This document shows positions 12,151 to 15,994 of a stretch of DNA of 64,000 nt, piece by piece (position 1 is the first letter of the stretch; every line of letters begins with the position of its first letter). The position numbers and the translations under genes were made by a program. Location of the stretch: the NCBI GenBank assembly GCA_964397855.1, contig CAYNKQ010000002.1, positions 3,884 to 67,883 on the forward strand, written 5' to 3'. The notes under the pieces are model-generated. The model worked only from the letters and a program-made list of their open reading frames with translations. It had not been told where the DNA came from and made no database searches. Origin of the DNA: an uncultured Candidatus Saccharibacteria bacterium. GTDB lineage: Bacteria > Patescibacteriota > Saccharimonadia > Saccharimonadales > UBA7683.

Positions 12151-12180
12151 AAAAAATCTCCGCGAAACGGAGATTTTTTA
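12151..12180. terminator. Bidirectional rho-independent terminator shared by rplT (+) and rnpB (-)
   Basis: AAAAAATCTCCG-cgaaa-CGGAGATTTTTT. A-run and T-run flank a 7-bp GC-containing stem. Confidence 0.8.
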
Positions 12181-12528
12181 GTGTCAGATCATCTGTAAGC
12201 CGGGTTCTGTCGAGGATAATCATCTATCTAGACTTGTTGTTGCCAATAAGTTCAAGCGGTTCTTGCGGCACGATCACGGCGGACCGCCTATTGTGACCAC
12301 GCCTCCTTGCAGCAGACAGGGTTTACCTCTCTTCCATGTCACCATGGCCGACTGTGGGCTTTTACCCCACTCGTTTCACCTTTTCCCTTCAACAAGTTCA
12401 GGGTAGTTTCGTTTCTGTGGCACTTTCCCTAGGGTCACCCCCGGTTGCCGTTAGCAACTGTCTCGTCCTGTGCTGCCCGGACTTTCCTCTCCCAATAAAT
12501 TGGGGGCGATCATCCAATGATCTGACAC
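12181..12528 (-). ncRNA. rnpB: RNase P RNA, bacterial type A
   Basis: The minus strand contains GAGAGGAAAGUCCGGGC (rc of 12475-12491), GGGAAAGUGCCACAGAAA, GGUAAACCC and ACAGAACCCGGCUUAC (rc of 12195-12210). The P1 helix is formed by GUGUCAGAUCAU and AUGAUCUGACAC at the two ends. Confidence 0.9.
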
Positions 12529-12543
12529 ACTCAGTATACCAGA

Positions 12544-13398
12544 TCAGTTGACAGGAACATGCGCATCAAGAATTTCATTCACTTTTGAATCTGCAACAAC
12601 ATTCAGCTCTCTCGGGATATGATTGAAACGAACCTGCTTAAAGCGCTGGGTTAATTCTCGTATCTGCTGATTTAGCGGCCACAAGTCTCGATTCTTTATC
12701 TTGTACAACCCATTCATCTGGTTAACGACCATCAGACTATCAATATTACACAAAATTGTGTCACTCGAGCCAGCAAATTTTGTAACAGCCTCTAGCGCCA
12801 ACAATAAACCCCTGTATTCAGCCTGATTATTACTCGTAATACCTATGTACGAGCCGCCTGATTCGACTATTTCGTTGAAACTGTTGTAAATAACATAGCC
12901 CGAAGCCGATGGACCCGGATTGCCCCTGGAGCCTCCATCAGAATGTATAGTAAACGTTGTGTTTTTCTCTTCAATCGAATACGATCTGCTTTGGCCGAGA
13001 TATTGGTCTAAAATTATCCTGGCATCAGGTAATACAACGTCATCCATATCTGATAATAAATCTACCCACTGATAGTCGCTATGCGATGGGGCGAGTTCTA
13101 CAGACTTTGTCTCGTCGTATGACAGTTCGAATACAATGCGCAGATATCGACCCTGCCTATTTTTTGATGCAAAGCTTGCATAGTACATAGGAATCACTCT
13201 TTTTAACGAAAGCTCCTCAGACAGCTTACGAATCAGACTATCCTCAAGATTCAAGCCTTCCGCAACCTTGCCACCCGGTAGCTCAAGATACCCCGGTAAG
13301 TAACTGTCGGATTGCGAACGACGCATTAATAGCACCTGACCCTTGCCATTATGGATAACGGCGTTAACGAAAACCGCCTGTCGATTCAACTCACTCAT
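12544..13398 (-). CDS. Nudix-fold domain fused to an RNase H (type 1) domain
   Basis: 284 aa. N-half carries a Nudix-like box GGKVAEGLNLEDSLIRKLSEELSL, degenerate relative to GX5EX7REUXEEXGU. C-half reads FTIHSDGGSRGNPGPSASGYVIY...NNQAEYRGLLLALE...DSLMVVNQMNG...HIPRELNVVADSKVNE (DEDD RNase H pattern). Confidence 0.8.
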   Translation of the reverse strand: MSELNRQAVFVNAVIHNGKGQVLLMRRSQSDSYLPGYLELPGGKVAEGLNLEDSLIRKLSEELSLKRVIPMYYASFASKNRQGRYLRIVFELSYDETKSVELAPSHSDYQWVDLLSDMDDVVLPDARIILDQYLGQSRSYSIEEKNTTFTIHSDGGSRGNPGPSASGYVIYNSFNEIVESGGSYIGITSNNQAEYRGLLLALEAVTKFAGSSDTILCNIDSLMVVNQMNGLYKIKNRDLWPLNQQIRELTQRFKQVRFNHIPRELNVVADSKVNEILDAHVPVN

Positions 13399-13415: not shown

Positions 13416-13934
13416 CTAAAGTATGATACACCTAGGCCACGCTGCGGTTCGGTAACCGAGGCAGAAGATATGCCAGTTCTCACAGTATTCACCGATCTTG
13501 GAGAAAGCCTTATCCTGGCTAAAATGGTGCTGTCCTTGCAGTATATTCGTGAGATTAAAGAGTGAACCGCCCATTTTTGCAACGACAGCTAGCGGATTTG
13601 CCCCAACTGTGAGCCTGTAATCTTCGAGACAGCTACACTGGGATTTGTCTAAAATAAACGCAGCCTCAGCCACCTCTGGGGGTGTACCCCTACCAACTAA
13701 GTGGTCGCGGGTGAGTTCTTTATTGTCTTCTGGGCCGTCGTGAAGCAGAGCCGTCGCCTGGTAAAGCTCGCCGTGCCCCATTGCAGCTACAATCTGAGCC
13801 ACGGGTATAAGATGTGCGTCCACATAATTCTCACCCCCGTAAAGTTGATTCATATGTATTTCCCTTGCCATATTCTCAATAACCAAGAGTAGCGTGTTGC
13901 CCGTCAGTTCCTGACGCAAGGCCGTACTACTCAA
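13416..13934 (-). CDS. HD-domain phosphohydrolase-like protein
   Basis: 172 aa. YGGENYVDAHLIPVAQIV...ATALLHDGPED (H...HD motif). The track start is TTG at 13934; ATG at 13871 is an alternative. Confidence 0.7.
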   Translation of the reverse strand: MSSTALRQELTGNTLLLVIENMAREIHMNQLYGGENYVDAHLIPVAQIVAAMGHGELYQATALLHDGPEDNKELTRDHLVGRGTPPEVAEAAFILDKSQCSCLEDYRLTVGANPLAVVAKMGGSLFNLTNILQGQHHFSQDKAFSKIGEYCENWHIFCLGYRTAAWPRCIIL

Positions 13935-13982
13935 CCTATTAAAGTTGCCCGTATGCCTCCTTCTTCAGGAAACTTTAAGTAT

Positions 13983-14037
13983 ATAAAAAGCGGCTGTACA
14001 CAAAGCTTCCAAATCTAGCAATTTGACTTTGTGTAGC
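13983..14037 (-). terminator. Hairpin plus U-tract downstream of tRNA-Pro
   Basis: Minus strand: GCUACACAAAG (14037-14027), 21-nt loop, CUUUGUGUACAGC (14005-13993), then CGCUUUUUAU. Confidence 0.5.
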
Positions 14038-14121
14038 AACCGCAATGGACGAGAATAGTTCTCCGCTGACCTACTACAGTATATATTGTAAATTCTCTAC
14101 ATAAACTATGCAACAATCCGG

Positions 14122-14197
14122 TGGTCGGGATGACAGGACTTGAACCTGCGACCTCACGGCCCCCAGCCGTGCGCGCTACCAGCTGCGCCACACCCCG
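14122..14197 (-). tRNA. tRNA-Pro (anticodon GGG), CCA encoded
   Basis: Minus strand CGGGGUG-UG-GCGC-AGCUGGUA-GCGC-G-CACGG-CUGGGGG-CCGUG-AGGUC-GCAGG-UUCAAGU-CCUGU-CAUCCCG-ACCA. Full cloverleaf folded by hand. Confidence 0.9.
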
Positions 14198-14261
14198 TTA
14201 GCTCCTATGTACATCTGTTTGATCCAGTTTTCCCTTTTCAGCTTGGGTACAGCCATTAAAC

Positions 14262-14394
14262 ACCCTCGACGATGTAGCTGATTTGACCTGATGTAATACC
14301 AGGTGGGCACTCTCAACTGCAACCCACGGGTAGCAGTCATATTAAGCTCCCATTCAAAATGTATTCAGTAAATCAGCTACATACATCCGAAGGT
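14262..14394 (-). ncRNA. Candidate 133-nt long-hairpin ncRNA upstream of tRNA-Pro (class unknown; 6S-like or atypical SRP-like architecture)
   Basis: 5' ACCUUCGG and AUGUAGCUGAUUU pair with 3' AAAUCAGCUACAU and UCGAGGGU (8 + 13 bp). Further helices follow: ACUGA/UCAG-GU, AUAC/GUAU, UGGG/CCCA, GCUU/GAGU, ACUGC/GCAGU, with apex CC-CGUG-GG. Four G-U pairs exist only in the minus-strand reading. Confidence 0.35.
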
Positions 14395-14400
14395 ACTTCC

Positions 14401-14409
14401 ATTATATCA
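14401..14409 (-). promoter_or_regulatory. Extended -10 promoter (TGaTATAAT) for the hairpin RNA / tRNA-Pro transcript
   Basis: The rc of 14401-14409 is TGATATAAT. The 7th nt downstream is A at 14394, the first paired base of the hairpin. Confidence 0.5.
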
Positions 14410-14499
14410 GGCATCCACAGACTATCACCCCTTGACCTGCAGCCAAAAAAACAGTAGTATGTATCATTGAAACCATTAACAAATGTATAAGGTAATAAT

Positions 14500-14691
14500 A
14501 TGTCACAAATATGTGAATTAACGGGCAAAGGAAAGCAGTACGGCAGCAATGTCAGCTTTTCAATGCGTCACACCAAAAAGGTATGGAAACCAAACCTTCA
14601 GAAGAAGACATTCATGCTTGATGGCAAAAAAGTAACTATGAAAATTAGTACTCAAGCTATTCGTACACTGAAGAAAAACGGCATCCTCTAG
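14500..14691 (+). CDS. rpmB: 50S ribosomal protein L28
   Basis: MSQICELTGKGKQYGSNVSFSMRHTKKVWKPNLQKKTF. SD-like sequence taaGGTaataatATG. Confidence 0.93.
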   Translation: MSQICELTGKGKQYGSNVSFSMRHTKKVWKPNLQKKTFMLDGKKVTMKISTQAIRTLKKNGIL

Positions 14692-14708
14692 AACAGAGCG
14701 CCAATATT

Positions 14709-14737
14709 AAAAAAACGAGCAAGTAGCTCGTTTTTTT
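14709..14737. terminator. Bidirectional terminator between convergent rpmB and the MBL-fold gene
   Basis: AAAAAAACGAGC-aagta-GCTCGTTTTTTT. Confidence 0.75.
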
Positions 14738-14753
14738 AATATTGATAATCGCG

Positions 14754-15380
14754 TTACTGCCGTTTGAGTACCTGGACAGTGAGTTGGTCAGGAAGTGCCT
14801 TAAATTTGTACTTATCCAATTGCTCTTCGGCAACCGGAGCACTGAGCTCTTTAACAAACAGTTCAATCTCTTGCTGGGGTACTTCATATGTCAAACCATC
14901 ATCAGCAGCGTGAACGGGTATGACTAACTTGGGTTCAATGTCACGCACTACTAAAGCAGCGCCTACGGCATCAAGCGTGTAACCCGAACCACCTACCGGC
15001 ACAATAACTACGTCAATCATACCGATTGCCTCAAGCTGTTCCTCGGTTAGCTTAGGGGCTATGTGACCAGTAAATAACATGGTGATATCGTTAGAGGTGA
15101 CTCTGTACACAGTAGCGCTCTTATCACCTGTCGCGCCCATGTGCGGCTGAGCAGAGATACCCTTAACCGAGTAGTCTTCAAATTCATATTCACCAGGACC
15201 ATCTACAACAAATACAGCCTCTGTGCCTTTGGGAATAAATGCAGGCTGTGTAGCAAGAACTGTGCTAACTTTCTTAAGATCAGCTTTAATATTTGTAATA
15301 TCACTAACCGGGTCAATCAATATTGATGACTTCTTTGTTGTAATTTTAATGCTATTTGCACCGTAATACTGTAGTTCCAT
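14754..15380 (-). CDS. MBL-fold (beta-lactamase-like) hydrolase family protein
   Basis: 208 aa. MELQYYGANSIKITTKKSSILIDP ... VVIVPVGGSGYTLD ... KLVIPVH. Resembles the UlaG/UPF0173-like subgroup. Confidence 0.7.
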   Translation of the reverse strand: MELQYYGANSIKITTKKSSILIDPVSDITNIKADLKKVSTVLATQPAFIPKGTEAVFVVDGPGEYEFEDYSVKGISAQPHMGATGDKSATVYRVTSNDITMLFTGHIAPKLTEEQLEAIGMIDVVIVPVGGSGYTLDAVGAALVVRDIEPKLVIPVHAADDGLTYEVPQQEIELFVKELSAPVAEEQLDKYKFKALPDQLTVQVLKRQ

Positions 15381-15391
15381 TGGTGTGTCTC

Positions 15392-15994
15392 CTATTTAGT
15401 CTCTAGAAATTTTTTAACAAGCCCACTGTTGTCCGTGAGCACTGAATGTTTGGTCGTAAGTGCAGTAATAATAAACCGATCCTTGATATCAAGGCGATAC
15501 TTGAACTCGCTCTCTGGCATAATAGTGTACCGAACAGCATTGCCCTCTTCAAGCTCAACCGTCTTCATAAGTTTCTCAAGCTTCTGTTTGTTACTTGAAC
15601 CTACTAATATGAGATCTATCTCTGTACCCTGCTGGCCCACAAGTGCCCCGCACGCAATTATTACATCGAAAGCACCCACGGCCTGGAGCCGCTTAAGGAG
15701 ATCTCCTTGCGAAGCAGTAGAAACGTCTTGCTGAGGAACTTCTACTGAAAATATTGATTGCAGCGCCTTGAAGTGTTTGTACCCCTGATTAACCTCGTAG
15801 TACAACTTATTGTTTGCGCTATCGGACTTAATAATACCGATACCCATTAGGTTGGATAGCTCTCGACGAACCGAGTTAATTTGTTCGTCGATTTTACGAG
15901 TAAGCTCACGAACGTAAAAAGATCTACCTGGGTTAGCCAGGAAAAGTTGGAGTAGCTTCACCCTCGTTTTCGAACCAAATAACTGCTCAATCAT
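15392..15994 (-). CDS. Winged-helix (ArsR/MarR-like) transcriptional regulator-like protein
   Basis: 200 aa. The N-terminus SKTRVKLLQLFLANPGRSFYVRELTRKIDEQINSVRRELSNL is a typical wHTH segment. Confidence 0.6.
   Translation of the reverse strand: MIEQLFGSKTRVKLLQLFLANPGRSFYVRELTRKIDEQINSVRRELSNLMGIGIIKSDSANNKLYYEVNQGYKHFKALQSIFSVEVPQQDVSTASQGDLLKRLQAVGAFDVIIACGALVGQQGTEIDLILVGSSNKQKLEKLMKTVELEEGNAVRYTIMPESEFKYRLDIKDRFIITALTTKHSVLTDNSGLVKKFLETK

Follow-up and report, generated by a model that had tools for sequence, protein, structure and literature searches.

What is encoded on the minus strand between tRNA-Pro and rpmB in the genome of an uncultured Saccharibacterium? Saccharibacteria are tiny bacteria with reduced genomes. 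In a stretch of 64,000 nt from one of them (the window), a preliminary description made from sequence alone had noted a long imperfect hairpin that begins exactly at a predicted transcription start, and had proposed a 133-nt RNA of the 6S or 4.5S/SRP class. We followed up this proposal computationally. The features that we describe are collected in Table 1.

Table 1. Features of the RNA locus and of the predicted RNA, in window coordinates (nt, numbering within the RNA)
Feature	Position	Strand	Basis or remark
Predicted 133-nt RNA (miniature 6S-like)	14262-14394	minus	predicted +1 = A14394; last paired base 14262
-35-like hexamer GTGATA	14423-14428	minus	promoter scan; weak match
Extended -10 element TGATATAAT	14401-14409	minus	sequence and promoter scan
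Closing stem, 5′ arm, nt 1-25	14370-14394	minus	pairs with 14262-14284
5′ central bulge, 18 nt, nt 26-43, ACUGAAUACAUUUUGAAU	14352-14369	minus	unpaired in minimum-energy fold
Apical arm, nt 44-90	14305-14351	minus	GGG/CCC, AGCU/GAGU and a 9-bp-class stem; CGUG cap
CGUG apical tetraloop, nt 67-70	14325-14328	minus	
3′ central-bubble hairpin, 7 bp, nt 91-109, ACCUGGU/AUCAGGU	14286-14304	minus	comes after the invariant CCCACCUGG block
Closing stem, 3′ arm, nt 111-133	14262-14284	minus	minimum-energy fold and covariation
Spacer between RNA and tRNA-Pro, 64 nt	14198-14261	minus	without terminator-like site
tRNA-Pro(GGG)	14122-14197	minus	64 nt downstream of the RNA, as first described
Bacterial RNase P RNA, class A	12180-12525	minus	249.8 bits
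Ribosomal protein L28 (rpmB)	14500-14691	plus	divergent neighbour

The surroundings are those of a Saccharibacteria genome. Among species-representative genomes, the closest relatives of the window's L28 protein come nearly all from metagenome-assembled Saccharibacteria/Saccharimonadales. The window holds four further tRNAs besides tRNA-Pro. In most of the Saccharibacteria loci scanned, RNase P RNA lies 1-2.5 kb from the 6S-like RNA, and the combination of 6S-like RNA, tRNA-Pro, RNase P RNA and rpmB is a recurring neighbourhood. On the minus strand at 12544-13398, a 284-aa ORF encodes a fusion of two domains, NUDIX at the N terminus and RNase H / RVT_3 at the C terminus; for two other flanking minus-strand ORFs, at 13416-13934 (172 aa) and 15392-15994 (200 aa), a Pfam search gave nothing at E <= 0.001. 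The rpmB gene and a metallo-beta-lactamase-fold gene converge, and between them, at about 14700-14745, an A run, a CGAGC/GCUCG stem with a UACUU loop and a T run form an element that looks like a bidirectional terminator; it also drew several weak matches to sRNA families, probably as a terminator look-alike.

As the preliminary description had proposed, minus-strand 14394-14262 forms a fold closed by its two ends (-53.7 kcal/mol). Dinucleotide shuffles (n = 200) averaged -33.5 +/- 3.8 kcal/mol and none folded as well (0/200; z = -5.36). The minimum-energy closing stem comprises 7 + 3 + 13 bp (23 bp) with two 1-nt bulges. The segments originally named as its strands do pair, and their original drawing as 8 + 13 bp (21 bp) is equivalent. 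The interior had been read as a series of five helices ending in a CGUG apex. The apex is as described, but what lies between is a bulge, an apical arm made of three short helices and a separate 3′ hairpin rather than one series of helices. A second arrangement lies close in energy. CUGA in the 5′ bulge (14365-14368, nt 27-30) can pair with UCAG (14288-14291, nt 104-107), and when this pairing is forced, the RNA becomes a true rod whose bubble measures about 12 x 12 nt; its energy, -52.0 kcal/mol, is 1.7 above that of the minimum-energy fold. The CUGA/UCAG helix and the 3′ hairpin are alternatives, as UCAGGU pairs either downward, in the rod, or inside the 3′ bubble strand.

With the window sequence as query, nhmmer detected homologues in 41 of 80 Saccharibacteria rpmB loci, on the opposite strand to rpmB. 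The covariance model R1, made from the nine closest sequences, matched exactly once in the window and once in each of 72 of the 80 loci (73 of 81 sources), at 31-136 bits. For a second model, R2, built from all 73 sequences, the window site was the sole match across 64 kb; R2 also recognised 47 of 80 metagenome contigs that had been fetched by a degenerate pattern. The window copy scored 116.8 bits with R1 and 80 bits with R2. Members of its close clade are 127-133 nt long, and those of other clades roughly 122-165 nt. Five deposits (L001, L002, L027, L057 and L067) carry a Saccharibacteria-type rpmB locus under the names Nomurabacteria, Limnocylindria, Limnocylindrales and Pristimantibacillus, which suggests that these are mislabelled or contaminated genome bins.

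Covariation in related loci, on which the original proposal had hung the reality of the helices, is extensive. In an alignment of the 73 sequences fitted to the covariance model, 31 of 39 pairs have changed on both sides, 94.9% of cells hold standard pairs (72.3% after shuffling), and the covariation score of 0.515 compares with 0.045-0.083 when partners are slid by 1-3 columns. An independent MAFFT/RNAalifold run found compensatory changes in 14 of 21 pairs. All but three of the closing-stem pairs (helices 1-5) covary across the 73 sequences. The outer 8 bp differ in sequence in all nine close relatives (9/9) and are always paired, and each relative folds end to end. Double compensatory changes affect 14 of 16 pairs of the apical arm (helices 6-8), in agreement with a MAFFT-only alignment. 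The 3′ hairpin (helix 9), kept in 71 of the 73 aligned members, is 98% paired and mostly invariant; G-C has become G-U in 23 members, and both sides are altered, to CCUUG/CGAGG, in L064 and L078.

The bubble evolves differently from the stems. CUGAAUA in the 5′ bulge is near-invariant across the 73 members, and both bubble strands (CUGAAUA and CACCCACCUGG) barely vary while the stems covary, as would be expected for a bubble that is contacted by protein. The apical tetraloop is also nearly invariant among the 73 members (CGUG, with the variants UGUG, UGCG, CUUG and CGAG), and the stem below it covaries freely. This loop may make a protein or tertiary contact. To our knowledge, 6S RNA has not been described as having a conserved terminal loop.

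Could the hairpin exist without a functional RNA, as a DNA palindrome, a repeat element or part of a short ORF (14176-14340, 54 aa)? A mechanically called ORF does overlap the region, and the plus strand, too, has a stable fold (-43.4 kcal/mol, z = -4.3). The plus-strand fold is nevertheless about 10 kcal/mol worse than that of the minus strand. Moreover, G-U cells outnumber A-C cells by 272 to 43 across the family, and the window copy has six G-U pairs within the family structure. Since G-U exceeds A-C and the plus strand folds less well, the RNA is read from the minus strand, as first proposed, and a DNA palindrome or an opposite-strand RNA is excluded. The ORF runs into the tRNA gene, and its overlap is with stems that covary; it was rejected. 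With 31 of 39 pairs doubly compensated, a covariation score that falls to 0.05-0.08 once partners are slid, a single copy and a conserved promoter all standing against it, an explanation without a functional RNA is hardly credible.

The promoter had been described as an extended -10 element, TGATATAAT (the reverse complement of 14401-14409), with a start 7 nt further on, at A14394; the sequence and a promoter scan both agree. The scan returned GTGATA-16 nt-TATAAT with an upstream TG (10 of 12 matches), and A14394, the seventh base past the -10 box, pairs with the final base, 14262. By itself the window promoter is not significant, as shuffled sequence contains 2.2 such sites per 1.1 kb. In the family, a -10 box is found in 72 of 72 homologues with enough upstream flank: 53 have a perfect TATAAT, 14 have TATACT, and 17 have an upstream TG. 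We took as the predicted start of each RNA a 7-mer beginning 6-9 nt past the -10 box; it was perfectly complementary to the 3′ flank in 58 of 72 homologues, compared to 14 of 71 for control 7-mers. The position of the predicted transcription start at the foot of the stem holds across the family. Together, these comparisons show that the putative RNA has an independently promoted, structurally constrained gene, single-copy per locus and conserved across the sampled Saccharibacteria genomes.

The proximity of tRNA-Pro(GGG) raises the question of whether the element is instead a cis-acting 5′ leader of the tRNA transcript that serves in processing, stability or regulation. We detected no terminator-like site within 13800-14900, and thus none between RNA and tRNA, and the two are probably co-transcribed in the window genome. 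Across the family, 41 of 73 loci have tRNA-Pro(GGG) as their nearest downstream gene, and in 24 of the 27 same-strand cases the distance is 2-64 nt. Against a leader role, the tRNA lies on the same strand in only these 27 loci; another 14 have it convergent and 32 lack it within 400 nt, and the RNA is equally conserved where no tRNA follows. Many relatives also have a downstream hairpin and T-run of their own. Because tRNA placement varies and many members have this stem-plus-T-run, the RNA is an autonomous gene, and tRNA linkage is no defining feature of the family. The synteny rules out an obligatory leader, and we regard a leader function of any kind as very improbable. Release by tRNA processing, as originally envisaged, is plausible in the window, where no terminator intervenes, but does not extend to the family.

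In another locus, L012 (3697-3900), the RNA model match stops 2 nt short of tRNA-Pro(GGG). After RNase P cleavage at the 5′ end of this tRNA, the RNA would thus carry a 3′ excess of only about 2 nt.

What kind of RNA is it? 6S RNA imitates an open promoter and holds back RNA polymerase. In a local scan, 6S/SsrS (RF00013) was the sole Rfam family to match, at 14257-14398 on the minus strand and over model positions 1-187 (35.7 bits, E = 2.3e-5). The score is below the gathering threshold of 46.4 bits, which was reached neither in the window nor in any of the 28 relatives' loci scanned, so that nothing is reported at the site. A scan of 18 relatives at the gathering threshold listed none of them. 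At the homologous locus and strand, RF00013 matched in 5 of 10 relatives scanned (23-32 bits), four times over the full model, and no other family recurred. L048, from another clade, scored 31.6 bits (E = 8e-5). In both the window copy and L048, the conserved 6S blocks CuGA, GGGag, CCCACCUgg and CaGGu align in order around the bubble: the UGA/UCA helix lies just under the bubble, GGGAG opens the apical arm, and the 3′ bubble strand starts with CCCACCUGG and ends with CAGGU.

The 4.5S/SRP half of the original class assignment fell away. We obtained no match to the bacterial small SRP model (RF00169) at E <= 10 in 13800-14900, and the domain IV motifs are absent, in keeping with the doubt already voiced in the preliminary description. 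The 6S half is favoured by a full-length, if sub-threshold, match to the only Rfam family found.

6S RNAs, which are said to occur in nearly all bacteria, are described as RNAs of 160-200 nt with an outer closing stem, a large 5′ central bulge where product RNA (pRNA) starts, an apical stem and an opposing hairpin (PMC8414754). A closing stem, a large central bubble and an apical stem are present here in the minimum-energy fold, in the forced rod and by covariation; the 3′ bubble strand forms a hairpin; and the gene is independent, with its own promoter, one match per locus and one in the 64-kb window. By analogy, the closing stem would be the downstream duplex (P1/P2) of 6S. In length the RNA departs from the description, as its 133 nt are 30-60 nt fewer than the usual span of about 160-200 nt. 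Truncated 6S-1 variants of 78-82 nt retain both binding of sigma-A RNA polymerase, at about 10-fold lower affinity, and pRNA templating in vitro (PMC8876501). Since such truncations are functional, a natural 133-nt version is mechanistically feasible.

Further comparisons yielded negative results. Neither R1 nor R2 matched E. coli ssrS (L081, 984-1166) with filters off, a weak test given the greatly different arm lengths. No 5-formyltetrahydrofolate cyclo-ligase gene lies near the window RNA. Eleven metagenome pattern matches with a spacing of about 91-105 nt were candidates for longer relatives of canonical length; none matched Rfam 6S at E <= 1, and by R2 ten were not family members and the eleventh (L157) was an ordinary one. 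The search for a competing canonical 6S RNA covered the 64-kb window and the 8-kb loci.

The family also contains a structural alternative. Outside the window's clade, the upper 5′ strand of the closing stem, AUGAUNA, is complementary both to the 3′ strand UNRUCAU, with which it forms the rod, and to a segment of the 5′ bubble, UNAUCAU, with which it forms a 5′ hairpin. This hairpin, AUGAUNA/UNAUCAU, can form in L044, L048, L020 and about 55 other loci (columns 27-37 with 51-60 of alignment A3). Its variable position covaries with both partners, as A-U in 33 and U-A in 25 sequences for pair 36-52 and as A-U in 12 and U-A in 12 for pair 37-206. In 44 members the calculated energies of hairpin and rod differ by a mean of -0.2 kcal/mol, the hairpin being the more stable in 23 and the rod in 20. 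It is the rod to which the Rfam 6S model aligns, and the 5′ hairpin is missing from the window's own clade. We could not match this balanced hairpin to any described 6S element.

These observations bear on whether the RNA could be a lineage-specific structured small RNA, such as a protein-binding scaffold or a two-fold riboregulator, that has nothing to do with RNA polymerase and resembles 6S by convergence or as a generic rod. A covarying 5′ hairpin isoenergetic with the rod in 44 members would be a switch not described for 6S. The conserved CGUG apical tetraloop, the failure of the family models to find E. coli 6S and RF00013 scores that are sub-threshold everywhere scanned point the same way, and where a model is rod-shaped, hairpin shape in general can account for part of a sub-threshold match. 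Against this explanation, four 6S consensus blocks are present in two divergent clades with their order and structural setting preserved, the architecture follows 6S point by point, including the 3′ bubble hairpin, and no other Rfam family recurs at the locus. We consider this explanation unlikely. On the sequence evidence, the RNA is probably a 6S-type RNA, the ssrS equivalent of Saccharibacteria, miniaturised to about 133 nt. As its score is below the gathering threshold, membership in the 6S family is probable rather than proven.

If the RNA is indeed of the 6S type, E. coli 6S and B. subtilis 6S-1 offer analogies from which a mechanism can be proposed. Three parts would make up the rod conformer: a closing (downstream) duplex of 23-27 bp, an apical (upstream) arm of about 19 bp and, between them, a bubble measuring about 12 x 12 nt. 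In this form the RNA would mimic an open promoter and sit in the active-site cleft of the sigma-A/sigma-70 housekeeping holoenzyme. A candidate template for a short pRNA is CUGAAUAC, the conserved strand on the 5′ side of the bubble; the pRNA would begin near U32/C34 and extend into the closing stem (for example 5′-GUAUUCAGUAAAUC). Its synthesis would open the CUGA/UCAG helix together with the upper end of the closing stem and free UCAGGU, which could then lock into the 3′ hairpin ACCUGGU/AUCAGGU, such that the RNA is released. In the window genome, the RNA would probably be made as a 6S-like-tRNA-Pro precursor, with RNase P cutting at the 5′ end of the tRNA and the leftover 3′ tail trimmed to the closing stem.

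A bolder extension takes in the whole family. Saccharibacteria, and possibly other ultra-small bacteria with reduced genomes, might possess the shortest natural 6S RNAs known (about 115-165 nt), and in most lineages the pRNA template strand might be gated by the 5′ hairpin, as a two-state switch for capture and release of RNA polymerase. We put this forward tentatively and think it somewhat doubtful. If true, the switch would be built into the RNA itself in an organism with very few protein regulators.

As the window and all 28 relatives' loci score below the Rfam gathering threshold, pipelines that apply this threshold should leave the RNA unannotated; R1 and R2 provide a ready means to annotate the gene in Saccharibacteria genomes. 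Within the literature that we searched, nothing relevant links 6S RNA or ssrS to Saccharibacteria, TM7, Patescibacteria or the candidate phyla radiation; a prior description is possible. If the RNA is a 6S RNA, episymbionts with genomes of about 1 Mb have kept global sequestration of RNA polymerase while shedding much else. It would also be a natural counterpart of the in vitro truncations in which the long helical arms proved dispensable (PMC8876501), and a minimal scaffold for structural work.

Among known RNAs, bacterial small SRP RNA (4.5S) resembles the window RNA as an end-paired hairpin of about 100-130 nt, but the large asymmetric central bulge and 3′ side hairpin of the window RNA are foreign to SRP. 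With E. coli ssrS and RF00013, the window RNA shares the rod of closing stem, central bubble and apical stem, the conserved blocks around the bubble and a sigma-70-type promoter of its own. As in E. coli 6S, there is a UGA/UCA helix below the bubble whose 3′ strand can alternatively form a hairpin with the 3′ bubble strand, the rearrangement by which E. coli 6S is released after pRNA synthesis (PMC8876501). E. coli ssrS is longer (183 nt, compared to 133 nt), with both arms shorter in the window RNA, and it sits between zapA and the 5-formyltetrahydrofolate cyclo-ligase gene, while the window RNA lies by tRNA-Pro and rpmB.

B. subtilis 6S-1 is about 190-200 nt long. It too has a short hairpin in the 3′ strand of its central bubble (5-7 bp; 7 bp in the window RNA), which faces an open 5′ bulge and already exists in the free RNA (PMC8876501, PMC8414754). 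It differs in its "central bubble collapse helix", in which the distal part of the 5′ bubble strand joins the 3′ strand of P2. By eye, we saw no consistent equivalent of this helix in the family, the window copy offering only a possible 5-bp UUUGA/UCAAA pairing. In other Saccharibacteria clades, in contrast to 6S-1, the partner of the distal 5′ bubble strand is the 5′ strand of P2.

In size, 6S RNAs in general are about 200 nt long, and the engineered variants 6S78 and 6S82cp are the other point of comparison (PMC8876501). Like the window RNA, these variants hold a central bubble between short arms; binding of sigma-A RNA polymerase and synthesis of 14/15-nt pRNAs are properties of the variants. 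They are artificial, lack the -35-like region and have about 10-fold lower affinity, whereas in the window RNA about 19 bp of apical arm and about 23 bp of closing stem are retained.
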